Origin: Candidatus Pacearchaeota archaeon
Lineage (GTDB): Archaea > Nanobdellota > Nanobdellia > Pacearchaeales > GW2011-AR1
Assembly (NCBI GenBank): GCA_017609535.1
Contig: JAFCDU010000001.1
Span: 4,782 to 68,781, forward strand
Reading direction: 5' to 3'
Length of the DNA stretch: 64,000 nt
The notes under the pieces are model-generated. The model worked only from the letters and a program-made list of their open reading frames with translations, had not been told where the DNA came from and searched no databases. This document shows positions 3,627 to 13,901 of the stretch, piece after piece (within the stretch, counting starts at the first letter, position 1; each line of letters begins with the position of its first letter). The translations under genes were made by a program, and so were the position numbers.

Positions 3627-4049
3627 CCCCCTTTTAATCCTTCACAAAATACCCCCAATCTATTTAAACTTTCCTATACTTGAAAATATAAATTATCACC
3701 CCCATTTCAAATGGAGCAAAAAACTCAAAAAATCTAAAAAATCAATCTTAAATCGTCGAAAACATCAAAAAACCCCTACCCCCTTATTTCCTCTCCAAAT
3801 GAAATTAAAACAAACAAATTAACAACTAAAAGAATTCCATATAAATATAACATAACTATCAAACAAAAAAACAGCAATAATAAATCCCTAACTATTCAAC
3901 AAAAAACAAGTAATAATAAATCCATAATTGTATATAATTAATCTAACAAAACCTTCAACAAAAACTATAATAATCCATAATTCACATAAAACCCTTTTCA
4001 TATAATTTCACATAAAAAAATATTATAAAAAATAATTCTACAAAACTAA

Positions 4050-4125
4050 CTAAAACCAACTAAAACCATAAATCTAAAACCATAATCAATCAATAATAAC
4101 CATTTAACAAAACTATCTAAAACCA
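4050..4125. repeat. Four dispersed copies of CTAAAACCA(A/T)
   Basis: Copies at 4050, 4060, 4074 and 4117, read directly. Confidence 0.7.
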
Positions 4126-4199
4126 TATCTGATTTAACATATCCAAAAAACATAGAGAAATAGGCAGTATATAATAAAACAAAAAACATAGAGAAAAAG

Positions 4200-4237
4200 T
4201 TATAATTAATGGTTATAATTAATGGTTATAATTCAAT
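4200..4237. repeat. Tandem repeat TTATAATTAATGG, about 2.9 copies
   Basis: ttataattaatgg ttataattaatgg ttataattcaat, read directly. Confidence 0.8.
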
Positions 4238-5251: not shown

Positions 5252-5953
5252 TTATTTCATCTTGCCAAAATCATAAACCTTATCAGCCACAACAAAAATC
5301 CTCCCCTTTAATCCAAACAAATCACTCCCCGCCTCAAGTGGAAAAAAACTCGGCACAATAATCCATTTCTTCTTTTTATATTTCCCAAAAACAAAACACT
5401 TAAACTTCTCTTGCTTCTCACCATCATTAATCTTAACAGCTGGATGAAAATGTCCTGTCACAATCAATTTTATTTTTTTGTCTTCAATCTTTCTCTGAAA
5501 TTTCTCAAAATCCCTCTTATTTCCATGAAAAAACAAAACTCCTTCAACATCATAAAAATCTTTCAAAAAAATTCTCCCCCTAAACTTATCTTTATTGACA
5601 ATTGGTTCTAAAATATTGTCATGATTTCCCTTGACAATTACAATCCTTCCAGATTTATACAAATGCTTCTTAAATATCTCAACTAATTTATAAAAATCCT
5701 CAAACTCCTTTTTCAAAATCCCGCCAAAATAATGCTTAACATCTCCAAGCAAAACAATTTTTTTAACCCTGCCAGTTTTTTTGAAAATTGCATCAAAAAT
5801 CTTGAGCGTCTCTTCCATCTGCGTCTTTGGAAAAACCCACCCCCTCTCATTTAAATAATTCTCATAACCCAAATGCAAATCTCCAATTATCAAAATCTTG
5901 TTTTCCTTCCAAAACAAACATCTGTCAATTGCATCAAACCTTTCTATTTTCAT
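5252..5953 (-). CDS. Metallophosphoesterase (calcineurin-like; MPE partner of the Lhr helicase)
   Basis: Motifs IIGDLHLG, LLGDV, VKGNHD, GHFH. Its start overlaps the helicase stop (ATGA). Confidence 0.75.
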   Translation of the reverse strand: MKIERFDAIDRCLFWKENKILIIGDLHLGYENYLNERGWVFPKTQMEETLKIFDAIFKKTGRVKKIVLLGDVKHYFGGILKKEFEDFYKLVEIFKKHLYKSGRIVIVKGNHDNILEPIVNKDKFRGRIFLKDFYDVEGVLFFHGNKRDFEKFQRKIEDKKIKLIVTGHFHPAVKINDGEKQEKFKCFVFGKYKKKKWIIVPSFFPLEAGSDLFGLKGRIFVVADKVYDFGKMK

Positions 5954-8553
5954 TTTCTTAACTCTGCATAAACCCTCCTAATAAACTCAATCTTATCTTC
6001 AATCTTAATAACATCAGCATAACCCTGCAGAATCAAATTAATTGCAAATGGACTAACAACGCGCGTGTTTTTTTTCACAATCTTAATTTTTCCAGATTCA
6101 ATCCATTCTAAAACTTTTTCTGCATTCTTAATATCCATCAAATCCTCTAAAACCTCTCGTCTAGCTTCTTTCAAAATTGGAAAATTCTTTGTTTTCTTCT
6201 TCACAGCCGCAAGAATAAAATGCGAGGACATCTCTTGTTTTCCAACTGACTTAATTCTCCCCTTATAGTTTCTTAAAATCATAAGGCCTCGAGCAGCACA
6301 ATGCCTAAACCTTCGTTTTAAAATCTCTGTCTTCTCAATTGCCTCATCCAAAATCTTCCGAATATTTTCCTTTCTCAATTTCTTAAATGCCTTTTCAACC
6401 TGATTCAAATCCCCTCCTGAAATATAAAATCCATTGTCAGTGATTCCAATCCCAACATCCCTGCCTCTGGCAGAAGCAACTAAATAGCCAACAGCCCGCG
6501 ATAAAGCGTCATTGACCCTCCTCCCAAACAAAGTATGAAACAGCAAGTAATTCTTTTCAGCCCGATATTCTTCAATTAAAATCTTATTCTCATTAGGAAT
6601 AATAGAAAATTCCTTCTGGTCTTTAAAATAATTATAAATTGTCTCAGCAGTCTTATTGTCGCAATACAAATAATCCTTAATAAATCGCAGAACATCTTTT
6701 TTCCCATCCTTCATTCGTTCATCCATATATTTTCTAAATTTCCCAATACTAACCGCAGTATCAAAACTCAATGGAAGCATTTCAGAAAACCATGAAGGAA
6801 TTGTCGGACTTTTAATCGAGCGCTTAACATAAACATTCATTCCTTTTGTATACATAAACTGATACCTGCTCCCTCCCAAAACAAAAACATCCCCCTTCTT
6901 CAGTTTTTCTAAAAACAATTCATCAATTTTCCCAACAATTTTCCCATTTTCAACAACATTAACATAACTTTCATCAGGAATAGTTCCAATATTAGTCATA
7001 TAAATAACTCTTGCTAATTTTCCTTTCTTCCCAATCTCCCTCCTTTCTTCATCATACCAAATCTTAGAATAAACATGGCTTTTTTCCAATTCATACTCTC
7101 CAGCAAGATACGAAACAACATTAAAAAAATCCTCTCTTGTCAAATTTCTATAGCAATAACTCCTTCTAATCAAAGAAAACATCTCATCAACATTCCATCT
7201 TTTATTAATAGCCATTCCATAAATATGCTGAGCCAAAACATCCAAACAATTTTCAGGAATGTGGATTTCATCAATTCTTTTCTCAATACTATTCTTCAAA
7301 ATTAAAGCACATTCAACCAAATCATCAACATCATAAACAACAAAACATCCTTTTGCAATTGCATGAAGCTTATGCCCTGCTCTTCCAATCCTTTGCATGG
7401 CTCTTGCTACGCCCTTTGGACTTCCTAATAAAATTACTAAATCAATAAAACCAATATCAATCCCCAATTCAAGAGAAGTAGAGCATACAACAGCCTTTAA
7501 TTTTCCATTCCTAAGCCGCTCTTCAATTGAAAACCTATGTTCTTTTGAAAGCGAAGAATGATGCGCCCCAATCAATGGCTCTGTTTCCCCGCTTTCAGAA
7601 TCAATATTCTCATACTTCCCAGGAAACTTTTCTTTTAAATTATGAACAACCCTCTCAGTCGCAGCCCGCGTATTAGTAAAAATTAATGTTGTTTTATGCT
7701 GTTCAATAAGTTCATCAATCAATCGATACAAATTGGAATCCAACTCAATAGGGTTAGTCTCTAAAAAATCCTTTACAGGAGTCGCAATACTTAAATTCAG
7801 CCTTTTTTCCAATTCAACAGACGCAATTTTGCAATCCCTATCCCCGACAAGATAATGAGCAACCCTCTCCAACGGTGCAATAGTAGCACTCAATCCAATT
7901 CTAGTAAACTCAATTTTTGACAGATTCTGCAATCTTTCTAAGGTCAAACTCAAATGAACCCCCCGCTTATTCTCAGCAAGCGAATGAATCTCATCAACAA
8001 TAACAAACTCCAGCAAAGAAAATTTTTCAGAAAACTTAGGAGAATTAATCATAATAGCCAAACTTTCAGGCGTTGTAACTAAAATATGAGGAACTTTTTT
8101 TAACATCTTTACTCGCTCCTTAGTTTCAGTGTCCCCTGTCCGCAGATTAACTTTAATCTCCTGCATTTCAATACCTTTTTCTTTAGCAAGTTTATTAATC
8201 TCCTCTAATGGACGAACAAGATTAACATATATATCATTGCTCAATGCTTTCAAAGGAGAACAATAAACAGCATAGACCCTATTATCTAACTCTTTTTTCT
8301 TAGCAATTGAAACAAGATAATTTAAAATACTTAAAAAGGCAGTCAGAGTTTTAGTCCCTCCTGTAGGAGCAGAAATCAATATATTTTTCCTATGAAATAC
8401 AGGCAATACACCATATAATTGAGTCCTGCTGAAATTCCTAAATCGCGAAAAAAACCACTCTCTAACTAAAGGGTCCAAACTATCAATAATCAACCTGCTG
8501 TCATATTCTTTAATGAACTCAAATCTCCCCATCTTATTTAGAATAATGAACAA
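5950..8553 (-). CDS. lhr: Lhr-type superfamily 2 ATP-dependent DNA helicase (DEAH/DEIH box)
   Basis: Motif I APTGGTKT, motif II VIVDEIHSL, motif III LSAT, HHSSLSKEHR, motif VI QRIGRAGH, and a long Lhr-like C-terminal domain. The true start may be the ATG at 8532 (MGRFEF). Confidence 0.8.
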   Translation of the reverse strand: MFIILNKMGRFEFIKEYDSRLIIDSLDPLVREWFFSRFRNFSRTQLYGVLPVFHRKNILISAPTGGTKTLTAFLSILNYLVSIAKKKELDNRVYAVYCSPLKALSNDIYVNLVRPLEEINKLAKEKGIEMQEIKVNLRTGDTETKERVKMLKKVPHILVTTPESLAIMINSPKFSEKFSLLEFVIVDEIHSLAENKRGVHLSLTLERLQNLSKIEFTRIGLSATIAPLERVAHYLVGDRDCKIASVELEKRLNLSIATPVKDFLETNPIELDSNLYRLIDELIEQHKTTLIFTNTRAATERVVHNLKEKFPGKYENIDSESGETEPLIGAHHSSLSKEHRFSIEERLRNGKLKAVVCSTSLELGIDIGFIDLVILLGSPKGVARAMQRIGRAGHKLHAIAKGCFVVYDVDDLVECALILKNSIEKRIDEIHIPENCLDVLAQHIYGMAINKRWNVDEMFSLIRRSYCYRNLTREDFFNVVSYLAGEYELEKSHVYSKIWYDEERREIGKKGKLARVIYMTNIGTIPDESYVNVVENGKIVGKIDELFLEKLKKGDVFVLGGSRYQFMYTKGMNVYVKRSIKSPTIPSWFSEMLPLSFDTAVSIGKFRKYMDERMKDGKKDVLRFIKDYLYCDNKTAETIYNYFKDQKEFSIIPNENKILIEEYRAEKNYLLFHTLFGRRVNDALSRAVGYLVASARGRDVGIGITDNGFYISGGDLNQVEKAFKKLRKENIRKILDEAIEKTEILKRRFRHCAARGLMILRNYKGRIKSVGKQEMSSHFILAAVKKKTKNFPILKEARREVLEDLMDIKNAEKVLEWIESGKIKIVKKNTRVVSPFAINLILQGYADVIKIEDKIEFIRRVYAELRK

Positions 8554-8612
8554 TTAAATAATCTAACTGCCCAATGTAATAAACTATAAAAACCGAATAA
8601 CTTTATAGATGT

Positions 8613-8897
8613 ATGCCAAAAATTAGCCAAGAAAAAAAACAAAAAATCCAAGAACAAATTTTATTTTATTTATATAATTCCTTCCCAACACCAAAGTTCA
8701 TATCAGATATTTCTAAAGAATTAGCAAGAGATGAGGAGTTTATAAAAATCCTAATAAATGAATTACTAAAAAAAGGGCTTGTTATAAAAATTGATAAAAA
8801 TCCAAAAGGCATAAAATACCTAAAAAGGCTTCGCTGGAGACTCTCAAATAAAGCCCATGAAGCATATTCAAAACAGCAAAGACTTAATCACAAATAA
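8613..8897 (+). CDS. Small winged-helix-like DNA-binding protein (hypothetical)
   Basis: 94 aa, basic, with a predicted HTH segment ISDISKELARDEEFIKILINELLKKGLV. Confidence 0.4.
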   Translation: MPKISQEKKQKIQEQILFYLYNSFPTPKFISDISKELARDEEFIKILINELLKKGLVIKIDKNPKGIKYLKRLRWRLSNKAHEAYSKQQRLNHK

Positions 8898-8927
8898 AAT
8901 TATAAACAATGACCCTCTTCTAAAAAA

Positions 8928-9545
8928 ATGGACCCAATTAAAGAAGCATTTCAAAAAGTCAAAGCTGAAATCTTAGATTTAAAGAAAGAAATTCAAGAAA
9001 TAAAACAAGAACTTCAACAGACAGACAATCCAACAGACAATCCAACACATATTCCAACACTTATCACTCTTTCAGAGCCTCTGAAACAGCCAAATTTGGC
9101 ATTTTCCACAAGAAACAGGGGGGTTCCAACAGACAATCCAACCAACAAACCAACACACCAACAGACAGACAAAAGCAATGAAAATCTATCATATCAAGCC
9201 AATTTTGATGATTTTGAACAAGCCCGCAAAATCTTAGATTCCTTAGATAACATAAAAAAGGAAATTCGCCTTAAATTTAAGCGCCTAACACCTAAGGAAA
9301 TGCTCGTTTTTTCCACAATTTATCAATTAGAAGAGAGAAATATAGAAGAGATTACCCATAAGATTTTGGCAAATATCCTTAATTTAAGTGAATCCTCTAT
9401 TAGAGAATATATAAATAAACTTACAAAAAAAGGGATCCCCATACTAAAAATACGCCAAAATAACAGGAAAATCCTCTTAAAAATCTCACAAGACCTCAAA
9501 AAAATTGCCAGTTTATCAACGATAATCCAATTAAGAGAACTATAA
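8928..9545 (+). CDS. Protein with N-terminal coiled coil, PTDNPT low-complexity repeats and C-terminal HTH (MarR/TrmB-like)
   Basis: 205 aa. Repeats TDNPTDNPTHIPT ... PTDNPTNKPT. C-terminal LTPKEMLVFSTIYQLEE...SESSIREYINKLTKKGI. Confidence 0.5.
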   Translation: MDPIKEAFQKVKAEILDLKKEIQEIKQELQQTDNPTDNPTHIPTLITLSEPLKQPNLAFSTRNRGVPTDNPTNKPTHQQTDKSNENLSYQANFDDFEQARKILDSLDNIKKEIRLKFKRLTPKEMLVFSTIYQLEERNIEEITHKILANILNLSESSIREYINKLTKKGIPILKIRQNNRKILLKISQDLKKIASLSTIIQLREL

Positions 9546-9641
9546 TGTCTGATTAATCGGTATACCGATTAAAAATATCCATCTTCTCTCCACTAAATTT
9601 CAATATCATCTCCTAATAAAACCTTCCTATGAAATCTAATG

Positions 9642-10250
9642 TTATTTCTCACCTTTCTTTGATTTTTTACCTGATTTAACTCTCACTTTTACACTTTTTA
9701 ACAAGATTTCCTTCTTGTTTTCAGGAATATACAACCTCTTTTTACCATTTTTTTCCCTTATCTCTCCTATCAAACCCTCACTTTTCTGTTTTATAGCATT
9801 TACTTGCCCTCTTATTGTGCTTTTATCCTTCCCTAAAAGAGCTGCCAAGTCCTCATAGCTTAGTTTTAACTCACTATTCAACAAAGCCCATACAATTGCC
9901 CTCTCCATTACTGTAAAATTAGATAAAATGGCTGTTTGGACACCCGTTTGGACAGGTGTTTGGACACCTTCAACACCTGTTTGTTTATCAACAGCTGTTT
10001 GTTGCTGTTTGGACAAAAACCATGGATTTTGGACAGAGACAATATTTCTTAATTCTTTCATCTCTTCTTGAAGTTGATAAATTAAATCTTTGAGAGATGA
10101 AATCTCATCTTCATAATTCTTATTTTTTCCGTCAATATGAGTAATCCATTGTCCTACTTTAACAAAATCCTCTCTTACTGCATCAAAAGATTTATGCATA
10201 TCATTCTTTAATTTTTCAATCTCCCTCTTTTTTCTAAGAAAACCAAACAT
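9642..10250 (-). CDS. Protein with N-terminal coiled coil, VQT repeats and C-terminal HTH
   Basis: 202 aa. QTGVEGVQTPVQTGVQT repeats are encoded by four copies of TGTCCAAACA. C-terminal winged-helix-like FTVMERAIVWALLNSELKLSYEDLAALLG. Confidence 0.5.
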   Translation of the reverse strand: MFGFLRKKREIEKLKNDMHKSFDAVREDFVKVGQWITHIDGKNKNYEDEISSLKDLIYQLQEEMKELRNIVSVQNPWFLSKQQQTAVDKQTGVEGVQTPVQTGVQTAILSNFTVMERAIVWALLNSELKLSYEDLAALLGKDKSTIRGQVNAIKQKSEGLIGEIREKNGKKRLYIPENKKEILLKSVKVRVKSGKKSKKGEK

Positions 10251-10331
10251 CTTAATAATTCCTGTTTGACGATATTTATAAATATTTCGTAAATATTTGC
10301 ATTAGGCAATGAAAAATTTTTATTTAAAATT

Positions 10332-10356
10332 TGTTCAAACACCTGTCCAAACACCC
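10332..10356 (+). repeat. Doublet of TGT(T/C)CAAACA motifs, intergenic copy 1
   Basis: tgttcaaacacctgtccaaacaccc. The same 10-mer occurs as a doublet at 12554-12575 and four times in reverse orientation inside the 9642-10250 CDS (9934-10015). Confidence 0.7.
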
Positions 10357-10388
10357 AACAATTAAATTTATCACGGCAAGTTCTTCTC

Positions 10389-10417
10389 TTTCACAAACCT
10401 AACCTAAGTGCATAAAA
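10389..10417 (+). repeat. 29-bp direct repeat, copy 1 (TTTCACAAACCTAACCTAAGTGCATAAAA)
   Basis: Identical to 11078-11106. Confidence 0.85.
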
Positions 10418-10495
10418 TCGCCGGAAGAAAAATAAAAATAAGGCCGCAAAAATGATAAACAGCAAATTTATAAACTTCAAACATCTTAAAATAAA

Positions 10496-10783
10496 ATGAG
10501 ATTTAATAAGCGGATTATATATTCCGGAGCAATCTCTTTAATTATTTTTTTCTTAGCAATGTCCATTAAAATAATCCCTTGCCAGACAGCTCCAAATGTT
10601 CCAAACCCCCAATATTCTTGGAAAATGTGCTCATTAAATCCCGACGCTGAGATAAAAACAGGAACTAAAAAACTATTCTTCGGTTTTAGTGAAAGCTTGT
10701 CAGAAACATATTTCATTGTCCTTTTAGTAACATTTATATTCTCAATGATACTATTACATTTTATAGGAAAAAGGAACATTTAA
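10496..10783 (+). CDS. Hypothetical small membrane protein (alternative: the overlapping minus-strand ORF 10486-10779)
   Basis: 95 aa with hydrophobic N- and C-terminal segments. A TATA-like aatttataaac lies about 25 nt upstream. It shares strand with the following genes. Overlapping ORFs exist on both strands, so the assignment is uncertain. Confidence 0.3.
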   Translation: MRFNKRIIYSGAISLIIFFLAMSIKIIPCQTAPNVPNPQYSWKMCSLNPDAEIKTGTKKLFFGFSESLSETYFIVLLVTFIFSMILLHFIGKRNI

Positions 10784-10819
10784 AAATATTAAAAACAAAT
10801 AAAATAAAGGAGGTGAAAA

Positions 10820-11014
10820 ATGAAAAAACAAGGAGCTGGTCCAGTGGGCATTGTTTTTTGGTTAGTTGGAATTATTGTTTCATTGGCAGTTGGCTTTGGC
10901 CTAATCAGTGGTAGTTTAGCTGTACCATACATAGGCCCAGTCAATCAAATAACTGGCTGGATTGTAGTGATTGGAACTGTTATCAATGTAATACTGGCCA
11001 TATTCAGTCAATAA
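10820..11014 (+). CDS. Small two-TM membrane protein (hypothetical)
   Basis: 64 aa. A strong AAGGAGGTGA RBS lies 6 nt upstream of the ATG. Glycine-rich TM helices. Confidence 0.55.
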   Translation: MKKQGAGPVGIVFWLVGIIVSLAVGFGLISGSLAVPYIGPVNQITGWIVVIGTVINVILAIFSQ

Positions 11015-11077
11015 ACTTACAATTTTCATTTTATTCTTTATTTTCTGATTTATTTCTTTTTCTTTTATTTAAACGAT

Positions 11078-11106
11078 TTTCACAAACCTAACCTAAGTGC
11101 ATAAAA
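11078..11106 (+). repeat. 29-bp direct repeat, copy 2
   Basis: Identical to 10389-10417. Confidence 0.85.
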
Positions 11107-11171
11107 AAATCCCCATAATAAAAAAATTAATCAAAAAATCCAAGAATTCTTCATAAAATACATAAAATTTA

Positions 11172-11227
11172 TATACTTAGGGCACCCTAAATAAACAGAT
11201 ACAACTAAATATAGATCCCTAAGTATA
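11172..11227 (+). promoter_or_regulatory. Inverted-repeat site upstream of the serine recombinase gene; candidate recombination or operator site
   Basis: TATACTTAGGG-CA-CCCTAAATA forms a palindrome with a 2-bp centre. A third half-site CCCTAAGTATA, an exact inverse of the first, lies 35 bp downstream and ends 5 nt before the ATG at 11232. Confidence 0.45.
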
Positions 11228-11231
11228 CAAA

Positions 11232-11990
11232 ATGACTTCATCAAAACCTCTCGCAGCAATTTATGTTAGGGTTTCAACACAAGAACAAGCCCAGCAAGGT
11301 TTTTCCCTCGCAGCACAACAAGAATCCTTGGAAAATTATGCAAAAGCCTTAGGTTATGAAATTTTTAAAATTTACAAGGATGAAGGAAAATCTGCAAAGG
11401 ACATAAAACACCGGCCAGCAATGGTCCAAATGCTTAAAGATGCAGAGAGCAAAAAATTTCAAGCAATATTTATTTACAAACTTGACAGATTTTCCAGAAG
11501 CTTAAAAGACCTTATCCTGACAATAGACAAACTAAAAGAATGGGGCATAGATTTTGTCTCTCTGCAGGATAAAATAGAAACTGCCTCTGCTTCAGGAAAA
11601 CTCATGTTTCACATAATCTCCGCATTCGCAGAATTTGAACGAAACATCATTGGTGACAGAACAAAATTCGGCATGGAGCGAAAAGCAAAAGAAGGAGGAT
11701 TTATAACAAAACCTCCAAAGGGCTACAGGCTAATAAACAAACAACTCGTGGTTGATGAAAAAGAAGCAGAAAGAGTCAAACAAATATTTGAACAATTTCT
11801 AAATACCAAGATATCCCTAACACAATTAGCAAAACAAAATAACATGACAACAGCAGGAGTTAAAAAGCTCCTCCAAAACACAACCTACATAGGAAAAGTT
11901 AAATTCGCAGGAAAAGAAAGCCAGGGAAATCATAAACCCATTATTTCTTTAGGACTATTCAACAAAGTTCAGAATAAATTAAATCTCTAA
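11232..11990 (+). CDS. Serine recombinase (resolvase/invertase catalytic domain plus recombinase domain)
   Basis: N-terminal catalytic motif AAIYVRVSTQEQ (nucleophile Ser), DGKSAKD, RxxxxLDRFSR. C-terminal recombinase-domain-like region ending NTTYIGKVKF...GNHKPIIS. Confidence 0.8.
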   Translation: MTSSKPLAAIYVRVSTQEQAQQGFSLAAQQESLENYAKALGYEIFKIYKDEGKSAKDIKHRPAMVQMLKDAESKKFQAIFIYKLDRFSRSLKDLILTIDKLKEWGIDFVSLQDKIETASASGKLMFHIISAFAEFERNIIGDRTKFGMERKAKEGGFITKPPKGYRLINKQLVVDEKEAERVKQIFEQFLNTKISLTQLAKQNNMTTAGVKKLLQNTTYIGKVKFAGKESQGNHKPIISLGLFNKVQNKLNL

Positions 11991-12521
11991 AACAGACAAT
12001 CCAACCCCCTTCTCTTTAGCCCAGCTAAGCAAAGCAAGCAACTCCTTCCCCCGCAATTCAATAAGAATTTCAGTATCCCCTTCATCACAGCGCTCAATTT
12101 CTTTATCACCCAAAGGAGGGGTCGCATAAAAATTATTAAATTTACAAGTATTATCGCAATATAAAATCCTATTTGTAACTCGCTCAACATCATCTTTTAA
12201 AATCTCAGGAATGTCATCAATTAGTTCAAGAGTTTCATTCAAACGTTCAGCAACCCCCCCTTCTTTAATTTTTTCTCTAATAAATTCTGGCAAATTTGTC
12301 AATTCTTCTTCATTATATTCCTTTAAAGTCAAATTTCCCTTAACATAATCCAAACAATAATCATTTGAATCGCATTTCACAAATAAATCCTCTTTCTCAT
12401 CCGTGACACAAACCCGCAAAACCTTAAAAACATAAAAATAATAAAAATAAACTCCAATAAACAAGATTAATAAAACTAAAATACCTACAATAATCAAAAA
12501 TATTTTCAAACCCCTGCCCAT
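11979..12521 (-). CDS. N-terminally anchored cysteine-containing protein (hypothetical)
   Basis: 180 aa with one N-terminal TM helix, then an acidic domain with 7 Cys. Confidence 0.4.
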   Translation of the reverse strand: MGRGLKIFLIIVGILVLLILFIGVYFYYFYVFKVLRVCVTDEKEDLFVKCDSNDYCLDYVKGNLTLKEYNEEELTNLPEFIREKIKEGGVAERLNETLELIDDIPEILKDDVERVTNRILYCDNTCKFNNFYATPPLGDKEIERCDEGDTEILIELRGKELLALLSWAKEKGVGLSVLEI

Positions 12522-12553
12522 TTAATTATTTAATAAGGCCTATTTATAAATGT

Positions 12554-12575
12554 TGTCCAAACACCTGTCCAAACA
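12554..12575 (+). repeat. Doublet of TGTCCAAACA motifs, intergenic copy 2
   Basis: tgtccaaacacctgtccaaacagcaa. Confidence 0.7.
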
Positions 12576-12595
12576 GCAAAATTTAAATCATCTCG

Positions 12596-13129
12596 TTGTT
12601 TAAACAACCTATGGTCTGTGAAAAATGTGGTTATGCAGAAGAAAAAGAAGCTGAAAAATTCTCTAAAAAACTATGTAAAATCTGTTTTCACTTTGCACCA
12701 GATGATAAACAACTGTTCAAACAATATATAAAAGAAAAAATTGATTGGAGAATTTTAGATACTTTTAGAAAATATCCAAAAGAAAATCCTCTTAAATTAG
12801 GGATGCAAAAAAAAGCAAAACATGGACAGCCAATGACCCGCCCTCCACTCGGCTATTCTCTCAAAGATGGAACGCTCAAACCAAATCAGGATGCATCAAA
12901 AGTCCATTCTCTTTTTAGGGTTTTTCTTGAAAAAAACTATTCCTTAAATTCTCTGGCAAAAAATTACGGGTTATCAGTAAATGGTATAAAAAAAATTCTC
13001 ACAAATCGCACTTATCTTGGAGAAATCAAATTCGCAGGCTCCCTGCATAAAGGGAATCATCATCCCTTAATCTCACCAGAAATCTTTTACGCAGTCCAAA
13101 GAAAATTGCGAACAATCTGTTCAAAATAA
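12596..13129 (+). CDS. Zinc-ribbon plus recombinase-domain protein lacking the catalytic domain (paralog of the C-terminal half of the 11232 recombinase)
   Basis: N-terminal CEKCG...CKIC. C-terminal TRPPLGYSL...TNRTYLGEIKFAGSLHKGNHHPLIS aligns with KPPKGYRL...NTTYIGKVKFAGKESQGNHKPIIS of the neighbouring recombinase. Confidence 0.55.
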   Translation: MFKQPMVCEKCGYAEEKEAEKFSKKLCKICFHFAPDDKQLFKQYIKEKIDWRILDTFRKYPKENPLKLGMQKKAKHGQPMTRPPLGYSLKDGTLKPNQDASKVHSLFRVFLEKNYSLNSLAKNYGLSVNGIKKILTNRTYLGEIKFAGSLHKGNHHPLISPEIFYAVQRKLRTICSK

Positions 13130-13160
13130 ATATAAAATAACCATAAATTACAAAAATCAC

Positions 13161-13901
13161 TTACTTTTTTGCTCTACTCAAACTATTCTGAATTTTTGAA
13201 AGATTAACTGGCCCAACTTTGTCAGGATCTGCCCCAACATATGTTGCAATATCCTTTAAAAAATCAATATATTTCATAGTTACATCAAATTTTTGAACTT
13301 CTGGAAGGTAATCCATTCGTCCTTGTGTATTTTTTCCAGCAGGTTTAAGTCTCACGTAATTTAAAAGAACATTATCTATGGTTGGCATATACTCAAAATT
13401 AATAAGATGAACATGCCCCTTATTTGCTAATCTATTAAGTGTATTGTTTCTATGGTGCCCTTTTTCTGCAAATCCAATAATCTTATAACTAAGGTGCTTG
13501 GCTAATTGCCTCCTATAATCTTCAAAAGTCCCCCCAGTTCTTTCTGATTTTTTCAAAGCCCTTTGTTCAAGAGATTTTCTAAATTGCCTATAACCCTTTA
13601 CAGCAGAAGCACCAGAAAGAACCTCATCTAAACAAATTATTTTCAGCTCTTCATCAGTTTCATACTCTTCAAAAAAATTATCATACCATCTGGACATTAA
13701 CTCATCTCTTTTTCTAAACCTGCTTGAATTTGGCGGGTATTCTACAATTTCTAATGGAAACTTTCTATCAACTATTTTTAAAATATCAATAAAAGGCACA
13801 GCCCCAACTACTGGAGCAAATACAACATCAGGTTTTTCCATATGTATAATGTCTGAAGCCTTCTTAAAACCCTTAACAAGATTCTCTATACTCCCTTTCA
13901 T
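13161..13901 (-). CDS. Phosphoribosyltransferase (PRTase)-fold protein of unknown function
   Basis: 246 aa. PRPP-binding-like motif KIICLDEVLSGASA, preceded by VVFAPVVGAVPF. Confidence 0.4.
   Translation of the reverse strand: MKGSIENLVKGFKKASDIIHMEKPDVVFAPVVGAVPFIDILKIVDRKFPLEIVEYPPNSSRFRKRDELMSRWYDNFFEEYETDEELKIICLDEVLSGASAVKGYRQFRKSLEQRALKKSERTGGTFEDYRRQLAKHLSYKIIGFAEKGHHRNNTLNRLANKGHVHLINFEYMPTIDNVLLNYVRLKPAGKNTQGRMDYLPEVQKFDVTMKYIDFLKDIATYVGADPDKVGPVNLSKIQNSLSRAKK

Follow-up and report, generated by a model that had tools for sequence, protein, structure and literature searches.

Introduction

What does a serine recombinase do next to the ribosomal protein genes of an archaeal chromosome? 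This question is raised by a 64-kb stretch of DNA from a Candidatus Pacearchaeota archaeon (64,000 nucleotides of contig JAFCDU010000001.1; hereafter, the window), which has a GC content of ~33% and codes for archaeal ribosomal proteins, PolD, and Cdc6. Its nearest relatives are metagenome-assembled genomes labelled Woesearchaeota, Pacearchaeota, or Nanoarchaeota. The block at 8600-13150 of the window contains a gene for a serine recombinase, termed SR, directly preceded by a palindromic DNA element, termed P, and the initial annotation had taken the whole block for an integrated mobile element. Here, we report that SR and P stand in the slot where sister genomes carry the tyrosine recombinase gene xerA and its dif site, and that the two modules exclude each other there. 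We cautiously favor the interpretation, drawn from comparative sequence analysis, that SR/P displaced XerA/dif in place and took over chromosome dimer resolution. The features of the module in the window are as follows.

11232-11990, + strand: SR, a 252-amino-acid serine recombinase with a catalytic domain and a "Recombinase" DNA-binding domain (RD)
11168-11231, + strand: P element, a candidate for both operator and crossover site, extending to the SR start codon
11168-11175, + strand: TATA box of P, TTTATATA
11176-11191, + strand: palindrome of P, CTTAGGG-CA-CCCTAAA
11217-11231: inverted distal half-site of P, CCCTAAGTATACAAA (third half-site, 11217-11224)

SR and XerA exclude each other in one chromosomal slot

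Using SR as the query against one genome per GTDB species, we collected 47 loci of the Woese-/Pacearchaeota type, with which the proteins of the window were compared by tblastn. As this sample is biased towards SR, the locus was also sampled in metagenome contigs through the host gene C202. Among the C202-sampled loci reaching far enough toward the gene for ribosomal protein S9, SR was present in six and absent from 25. The loci lacking SR included the closest relatives of the window's C202 and kept homologs of the neighboring genes D95, E64, G180, and H177. The position of SR was held in L094 and L071 by a tyrosine recombinase of 274-294 amino acids, which scored 215 and 234 bits, respectively, against the NCBIfam model recomb_XerA_Arch (cut-off 220) and whose best solved relatives were the XerA structures 4A8E and 5HXY. 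No C202-sampled locus carried both SR and XerA, six carried SR only, 23 carried XerA only, and two carried neither (Fisher p = 3.8e-5). By tblastn, xerA was found within 10 kb in only 2 of the 47 SR-sampled loci (L029 and L048) and was not detected in the 64-kb window (E<1e-5). Three contexts sampled through xerA, on contigs of 237-467 kb, showed xerA in exactly the same slot and no Resolvase gene. A housekeeping Xer-like role had been regarded in the initial annotation as unlikely for a serine-type enzyme; SR holds the exact XerA/dif slot and excludes XerA.

The same interval of XerA-type loci contained a 28-bp dif-like site, GTTCGCAYAAT-ATACAT-TGTAYGACGTTC. Of its 28 positions, 19 are identical to those of E. 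coli dif. An 11+6+11 arrangement of this kind has been described for dif (PMC2958812). In addition, a dif half-site stands in the xerA promoter, after the TATA box and ahead of the ATG. The order in L129 and L145 is dif, 17 bp, TATA box, half-site, and ATG of xerA; in the SR-type locus L009 it is dif, 15 bp, TATA box, P, and SR. L002 (SR) and L145 (XerA) were collinear over ~18 kb except for 9103-11217 of the former and 8428-10492 of the latter. Moreover, a dif sequence was recognized 42-126 bp upstream of P in eight SR-type loci; it was intact in L009 and L023, and its left arm had decayed in L002, L007, and L012-L015, as expected if XerA no longer acts there. The window had no dif relic; no dif-like 28-bp site was found in its 64 kb at up to 8 mismatches.

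Several further observations were made on the XerA-type loci. An HNH endonuclease gene lies directly 3' of or near xerA in L145 (9831-10124), L146 (9833-10177), and L094 (7902-8417). The xerA match of L140 is in two pieces (6470-6619 and 7646-8332) ~1 kb apart, and the gene may have been interrupted by an insertion or be a frameshifted pseudogene. In the XerA-type loci L071-L147, xerA and the dif-like site are only 5-8 kb from cdc6/PolD (L145: dif 8925-8952, xerA 9001-9828). The dif of Thermococcales is found in the terminus region and not beside xerA (PMC2958812). In the present genomes, the origin is not next to cdc6, or else dif is origin-proximal. In the window, the region beside cdc6 (3630-4230) comprises ~600 bp of non-coding, AT-rich DNA (21% GC) with direct repeats of 36-bp period (3853/3889 and 4144/4180) and 13-bp tandem repeats (4201-4228). 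It looks origin-like by its composition and repeats, with no evidence of canonical ORB sequences and no skew inflection; the GC skew around cdc6 gave no origin or terminus signal in the window.

Sequence features of SR

SR matched Pfam Resolvase (PF00239) with an E-value of 4.9e-44 and Pfam Recombinase (PF07508) with 3.8e-9, the latter match aligning residues 176-250 to profile positions 1-99 of 102. Its closest solved relative was the catalytic domain of TP901-1 integrase (E 8.6e-30; γδ, 1.8e-9), and its alignments covered residues 9-264 of 542 in CcrB and positions 87-356 of 651 in PHROG 95 integrases, in both cases the N-terminal half. The zinc-ribbon/coiled-coil domain was absent, as the protein ends at the RD and has no further Pfam match. 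SR thus resembles a large serine recombinase cut down to its N-terminal half, with only the catalytic domain and the RD. It did not fit the size and domain pattern of small resolvases (~180-200 amino acids with a short C-terminal helix-turn-helix (HTH)), because its C-terminal domain is the RD. The presence of a serine recombinase, as initially annotated, was therefore confirmed, with its catalytic residues intact.

Among 167 SR sequences, the catalytic residues R13, S15, D85, R86, and R89 were at least 98% conserved, and the same level was reached at 92 of the 252 positions. The catalytic domain had a mean pairwise identity of 80-83% and almost no phylogenetic signal. IMG/VR contigs, plasmids, and phage genomes yielded no close relatives of SR (40% identity at best), and an exact-sequence look-up gave no match. 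Two forms were distinguished: SR1, to which the enzyme of the window belongs, and SR2, whose RD is sister to the clade of the stand-alone protein H177. We also considered that SR might be a universal, vertically inherited housekeeping gene, given 77-84% identity and >2000 homologs, and discarded this idea because most close relatives lack SR in the SR-independent sample.

Divergent arrangements were noted in a few loci. In L051 and L052 (10001-10723 and 11022-11354) and L126 (1561-2899), the serine recombinase in the slot is a divergent one with 43% identity; behind it lies an RD-only fragment (58-65%) of the canonical SR type. The arrangement may be a replacement in decay or a third type of module. 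At 9919-10738 of L047, the Candidatus Huberarchaeum crystalense contig PFUW01000040.1, there is a canonical P+SR module with 77% identity; the usual flanking genes are not within range, and a run of N lies just upstream of the module. This is either a lateral transfer beyond Woese-/Pacearchaeota or a binning or scaffolding artefact.

P, a candidate site of SR

P has the layout TTTATATA, CTTAGGG-NN-CCCTAAG(T), NNN-CGTGAAC, ~15-18 nt, CCCTAAGTTCACA, and then AAAGAGGAAAA-ATG. The initially annotated palindromic half-sites were recovered as CTTAGGG-CA-CCCTAAA at 11176-11191 and a third half-site at 11217-11224. In general, the third half-site lies ~30 bp downstream of the palindrome ACTTAGGG-NN-CCCTAAGT, and both palindrome and third half-site are between the TATA box and the ATG, with U-boxes (described below) 65-157 bp upstream. 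One P per locus, on the SR strand, was present in ~44 of 50 SR loci, and P was absent from all SR-less loci. P was single in the 64-kb window, and no P-like repeat was detected downstream of SR, where the SR stop codon overlaps the host gene G180.

Both ACTTAGGG and CCCTAAGT were nearly invariant in 40 aligned species. The central dinucleotide was CA in 29 cases, TG in 7, CT in 3, and GA, AA, and CC in one each, and was never palindromic. The variant of P goes with the SR type, a pattern that fits recognition of P by the RD. Downstream of P, a GTGAAC…GTTCAC inverted repeat was paired in 87.9% of cells with 14 double changes; this modest covariation was matched in 0 of 500 shuffles, and slid controls gave 17-42%. 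A structured 5' leader RNA was rejected as its explanation, as the repeat is short and fits a DNA inverted repeat equally well and the region has no Rfam match. Intergenic copies of TGTCCAAAC just upstream of SR in L027, L036, and L040 were likewise rejected, as they turned out to be coding sequence (the C-terminus of a HAD protein or the N-terminus of SR).

Indications of repeated replacement of XerA/dif

Host and non-host genes were told apart by rank correlations of pairwise identities. Cdc6, PolD-DP1, and the ribosomal and RNA polymerase genes intercorrelated at rho 0.59-0.86, and XerA divergence followed the host genes at rho 0.5-0.84. In contrast, SR did not correlate with them (rho 0.0-0.17). 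SR and P thus behave as laterally exchanged DNA. L018 (SR1) and L039 (SR2) have different SR forms, and their flanking proteins are otherwise 92-97% identical. A recent transfer of SR was not accepted from pairwise identities alone, since L042 and L046 share 96% identity in the protein but only 86% in the DNA, and since the catalytic domain is nearly devoid of phylogenetic signal; only the decoupled history and the interspersed types were retained.

SR-type and XerA-type loci were interspersed on the C202 tree. The nearest typed neighbor of the window was XerA-type, L100 (SR) was inside a XerA clade, and L129 and L132 (XerA) were nearest to L025 (SR). Together with the decoupled divergence of SR, this indicates several independent replacements of XerA/dif by SR/P. 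Since att-type duplicates were not seen, lateral transfer combined with homologous recombination within the conserved flanks is the probable route.

Proposed function and alternative explanations

In the window and in many other lineages, an unrelated module, the 252-amino-acid SR together with its own site P, has been swapped in for XerA/dif. The comparisons establish this mutually exclusive swap, the linkage of SR with P, the constraint on both, and the decay of dif. Here, we propose the following mechanism for the module. SR dimers would bind P and so repress the SR promoter. On a chromosome dimer, the two copies of P would be synapsed by SR and their strands exchanged at the central non-palindromic dinucleotide; the exchange between P and P would return the dimer to monomers, as XerA/dif does in sister genomes. 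P is found once in the 64 kb of the window and once per 20-kb locus. That SR binds and recombines P, thereby resolving chromosome dimers, seems to us somewhat on the probable side.

Several points weigh against this function. The scans covered the loci, so xerA/dif elsewhere in SR-type genomes is possible, and the SR-sampled loci are biased by that selection. L029 and L048 carry xerA besides SR, and in L009 and L023 an intact dif precedes P. The module lies ~7 kb from cdc6/PolD and not at an obvious terminus, which is surprising for a resolution site; the same holds for dif in XerA-type relatives. Relatives of SR among the large serine recombinases normally integrate and excise elements and do not resolve dimers. 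P could be only an operator. Finally, the decoupled phylogeny also fits a selfish cassette of the homing type.

Such a minimal selfish cassette, consisting of SR and P, would spread laterally, home to the xerA/dif locus, and knock out or displace xerA without doing its job, with dimers being resolved by xerA elsewhere or resolution being dispensable. We consider this unlikely, although it is the best of the alternatives. It would explain why SR is patchy at a fixed locus with a phylogeny decoupled from the host, why its nearest characterized relatives are phage integrases, and why SR coexists with xerA in two loci and P with an intact dif in two others. However, there are no flanking att-type duplicates, no other mobile-element genes, and no relatives in viral or plasmid collections, and the catalytic residues are under very strong purifying selection (~170 sequences). 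Furthermore, xerA is otherwise always in this slot, and dif has decayed in six SR lineages.

A role of SR as a domesticated DNA-binding regulator, or at a distant target, with P being an autoregulatory operator only, is improbable. P lies where archaeal repressor sites typically do, past the TATA box and ahead of the start codon, and the xerA promoter likewise has a dif half-site as its presumed operator, with the full dif apart in some loci. Nevertheless, a pure regulator would have no need of the invariant catalytic Ser, Arg, and Asp, and the mutual exclusion with XerA would still demand a functional link. Dimer resolution by SR at P is our preferred explanation of this locus.

U-boxes and small membrane proteins

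The interval upstream of P contains two small genes bracketed by direct repeats, termed U-boxes.

10496-10783, + strand: D95, small membrane protein
10820-11014, + strand: E64, small membrane protein
10389-10417, + strand: U-box copy 1, 29-bp repeat arm, ~107 nt upstream of D95
11078-11106, + strand: U-box copy 2, 29-bp repeat arm between E64 and P, at distances of 78 and 76 bp, respectively

The small membrane proteins and the perfect 29-bp direct repeats had both been reported in the initial annotation, correctly so. The repeats flank D95-E64 and neither the recombinase gene nor the whole block. Homologs of D95 and E64 occupied the same position across the window's clade, in SR loci and XerA loci alike. 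The conserved core of the U-box is AAC(T/A)AAG-NTAA-CCTAAGTGCAC, with one to four copies per locus, all on the + strand and typically 60-120 nt upstream of each small + strand open reading frame (ORF). U-boxes were found in SR loci and in SR-less loci, and an equivalent box follows E64 in XerA-type relatives.

There is little probability that SR excises or inverts the small membrane-protein genes between the U-boxes, as phase variation or integron-like cassettes. The perfect 29-bp repeats around D95-E64, and the recurrence of one to four direct U-boxes per locus among highly variable small ORFs (73 of ~120 singletons), would suit such a switch. However, U-boxes also occur in XerA-type loci without SR, their regular spacing of 60-120 nt upstream of ORFs is like that of promoter boxes, copies within a locus are usually non-identical, and gene content varies also in the U-box-free intervals between P and SR and between SR and H177. 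An integron-like cassette array bounded by U-boxes was rejected for the first two of these reasons.

Binding of U-boxes by H177 was also considered. In one tally, U-boxes were present in every SR1 locus that has H177 and missing from seven SR1 loci that lack it; with a relaxed definition over all loci, p was 0.10, and the association was not relied on.

A conserved chromosomal neighborhood

The remaining features of the block in the window are as follows.

8613-8897, + strand: A94, small putative winged-helix protein with weak HTH matches; host gene outside the variable module
8928-9545, + strand: B205, composed of a coiled coil, PTDNPT repeats, and a C-terminal HTH; host gene
9642-10250, - strand: C202, coiled coil, VQT repeats, and a conserved C-terminal domain (putative HTH); host gene
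11979-12521, - strand: G180, with an N-terminal membrane anchor; convergent with SR, 12-bp overlap
12541-12577, + strand: TATA-like box followed by TGTCCAAACACCTGTCCAAACAGC, upstream of H177; twin at 10318-10357
12596/12611-13129, + strand: H177, zinc ribbon plus RD-only paralog without a catalytic domain; N-terminal CxxC...CxxC

All ORFs listed in the initial annotation were found at their coordinates. Of the three small DNA-binding proteins claimed there, B205 had HTH matches in Pfam (HTH_11, 2e-5; HTH_24, 6.7e-5), and the matches of A94 and C202 were weak. The predicted catalytic-domain-less paralog is H177, which matched Pfam Recombinase alone (5e-7) and PHROG 95 at positions 227-355. H177 adjoins S9 in most loci and is conserved in SR-type and XerA-type genomes; its RD forms a clade of its own, and its divergence follows that of XerA where XerA is present (rho 0.84). 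In L071, H177 (6610-7137) and xerA (7139-8023) are on the same strand with a 1-bp gap. H177 is thus a DNA-binding protein of serine-recombinase origin that remains a stable partner of the locus even beside a tyrosine-type resident, and it may be an accessory factor.

The block was said to interrupt a housekeeping gene order, and this was contradicted by its relatives. The order in the SR-sampled loci was PolD-DP1, Cdc6, PRC and ~140-amino-acid genes, A94, B205, C202 (- strand), small ORFs, SR, a stretch of variable genes (0 to 7.5 kb), H177, S9, L13, L18e, RpoD, S11, and S4, and annotated contexts agreed. Apart from the variable slot, it recurred in ~45 GTDB species-level genomes and 80 metagenome loci. 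GC content was 0.27-0.38 within the block and 0.29-0.38 in the flanks, i.e. flat with no shift, and no att-like repeats bracket the block. Among the block proteins, only SR and H177 had PHROG (virus protein family) matches above the threshold of E 1e-3, and the comparison with virus and plasmid collections yielded no close relatives of SR. The divergence of A94 (rho 0.44-0.71), B205 (0.30-0.66), and C202 (0.82 with Cdc6) followed the host genes, the three together spanning rho 0.30-0.82 (0.42-0.82 against Cdc6 and ribosomal proteins); therefore, they are vertically inherited host genes. Because most of the block has the same genes in the same context without a composition shift, the 5-kb island was refuted: the block is a conserved chromosomal neighborhood of Woese-/Pacearchaeota-type DPANN archaea. 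Although a recombinase, small DNA-binding proteins, and repeats are clustered in it, an integrated serine-recombinase element spanning 8600-13150 is hardly credible given the shared genes and context, the host-like phylogeny of A94, B205, and C202, the flat composition, and the missing bracketing repeats.

What does vary among close relatives is smaller. The predicted presence or absence of the whole block was not observed, but SR and P (~0.9 kb, ~11168-11990) are present in some close relatives and absent from others. The right edge of the swapped segment is marked by G180, whose homologs adjoin H177 in the XerA-type loci L072, L074, L087, L088, and L094. The laterally exchanged unit of ~0.9 kb looks like a housekeeping Xer replacement and not like the integrase of an integrated element.

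Two neighboring genes depart from the conserved order. The Lhr helicase and metallophosphoesterase genes (5252-8553) sit between the PRC/140-amino-acid genes and A94, an arrangement limited to the window's clade and a few loci (L001, L029, L042, L046, L048, L049, L069, L071, L073, L075, and others). Elsewhere, A94 is directly 3' of the 140-amino-acid gene, and Lhr is therefore a variable insert relative to the conserved order. A 246-amino-acid ORF (13161-13901, - strand) between H177 and S9 had no Pfam, NCBIfam, or PHROG match, and its only homolog among the fetched loci was in L001, a contig of the same species.

The initial annotation had further noted a motif family, which was recovered as the 21-mer TGTCCAAACACCTGTCCAAAC at 12554, at 10332 with one mismatch, and as the reverse complement within C202 at 9946-9966. 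The two near-identical intergenic copies (10332-10357 and 12554-12577) follow TATA-like boxes. Within C202, the VQT repeat is coded by GTYCAAACR at a 12-nt period (9931-10015), and its synonymous sites are almost frozen (codon test, 116 genes/loci): for Q, CAA makes up 328 of 329 repeat codons (66% in the rest of the gene); for T, ACT accounts for 1 of 329 (30% in the rest); and for V, GTA or GTG accounts for 7 of 329 (49% in the rest). Motifs of the GTTTAAACA type fill the C202-proximal intergenic region in other species; they are one base off the coding version and have a stop codon in that frame. By analogy with parS inside parB, this suggests that the coding repeat has a DNA- or RNA-level function. 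In addition, the 14-mer ACAGACAATCCAAC, which codes for the PTDNPT repeat of B205 (9021, 9033, and 9129), recurs exactly at 11992-12005, at the SR stop codon and the 3' end of G180; the chance expectation is ~5e-4 per 64 kb, and the recurrence is limited to the window's species and L001.

Comparison with known recombination systems

To our knowledge, all chromosome dimer resolution systems described so far are of the tyrosine type, i.e. XerCD, XerS, XerH, and XerA. A review of Xer recombination gives only tyrosine recombinases for this process (PMC5357621), according to a 2021 review, transposons are the only place where serine recombinases have been seen in archaea, and these enzymes were never fully investigated (PMC8371274), and a 2022 review reports no case of such a replacement of XerA/dif by a serine recombinase. 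In the full-text literature on serine recombinases with DPANN, Woesearchaeota, or XerA, we found no description of such a system. SR may thus be the first serine-type enzyme in chromosome dimer resolution. The chances appear even that SR/P constitutes a first serine-recombinase dimer resolution system as a whole, compact, descended from the N-terminal half of a large serine recombinase, laterally spread in Woese-/Pacearchaeota (GTDB Nanoarchaeota), and repeatedly displacing the otherwise near-universal XerA/dif from its own slot.

If so, two unrelated recombinase superfamilies would be interchangeable for a core function, and the lateral replacement of a housekeeping module would be documented in reduced DPANN genomes. 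A minimal recombinase of 252 amino acids would act on a site of ~20-60 bp without zinc-ribbon/coiled-coil control, and SR/P would be of interest for site pairing, for directionality, and as a genome-engineering tool. The question is directly testable, as the enzyme, the candidate site, and the sister XerA/dif loci are all defined.

Plasmids and transposons have serine resolvase/res modules for multimer resolution, which turn replicon dimers back into monomers, the job proposed for SR/P. In Tn3/γδ resolvase, RK2 ParA, Sin, and β recombinase, as in SR/P, the gene lies directly downstream of promoter-overlapping DNA with multiple half-sites. Unlike these modules, SR/P is chromosomal and conserved across a lineage, no three-subsite set as in res is demonstrable at P, and the DNA-binding domain of SR is the ~100-amino-acid RD of large serine recombinases and not a small HTH. 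The catalytic domain of SR is also closer to TP901-1 and CcrB than to γδ (8.6e-30 vs 1.8e-9).

The best matches of SR were large serine recombinases (TP901-1 integrase, CcrB, XisF, and PHROG 95), with ~40% identity over the catalytic domain and the RD. Those enzymes have 450-650 amino acids, whereas SR has 252 and lacks the zinc-ribbon/coiled-coil domain that controls att choice and directionality. Unlike them, SR has neither attL/attR-type repeats nor a mobile-element context.

Precedents for the displacement of Xer are XerS/difSL in streptococci and lactococci and XerH/difH in Helicobacter and Campylobacter (PMC5357621, PMC8987985). These modules are also a single recombinase from mobile DNA encoded beside its site; unlike SR/P, they are still tyrosine recombinases acting on dif-like sites.

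The closest counterpart is XerA/dif (Pyrococcus abyssi XerA, PDB 4A8E; Cortez et al. 2010, PMC2958812), which occupies the same slot in sister genomes. Both modules consist of a TATA box, then the presumed binding site of the recombinase, then a single highly conserved gene, and in L129 and L145 dif precedes the promoter by 15-17 bp. They differ in that SR uses a serine and XerA a tyrosine nucleophile, the two belonging to unrelated superfamilies, and in that P is a palindrome with a 2-bp center and dif is 11+6+11. Furthermore, XerA tracks the host phylogeny, whereas SR does not.

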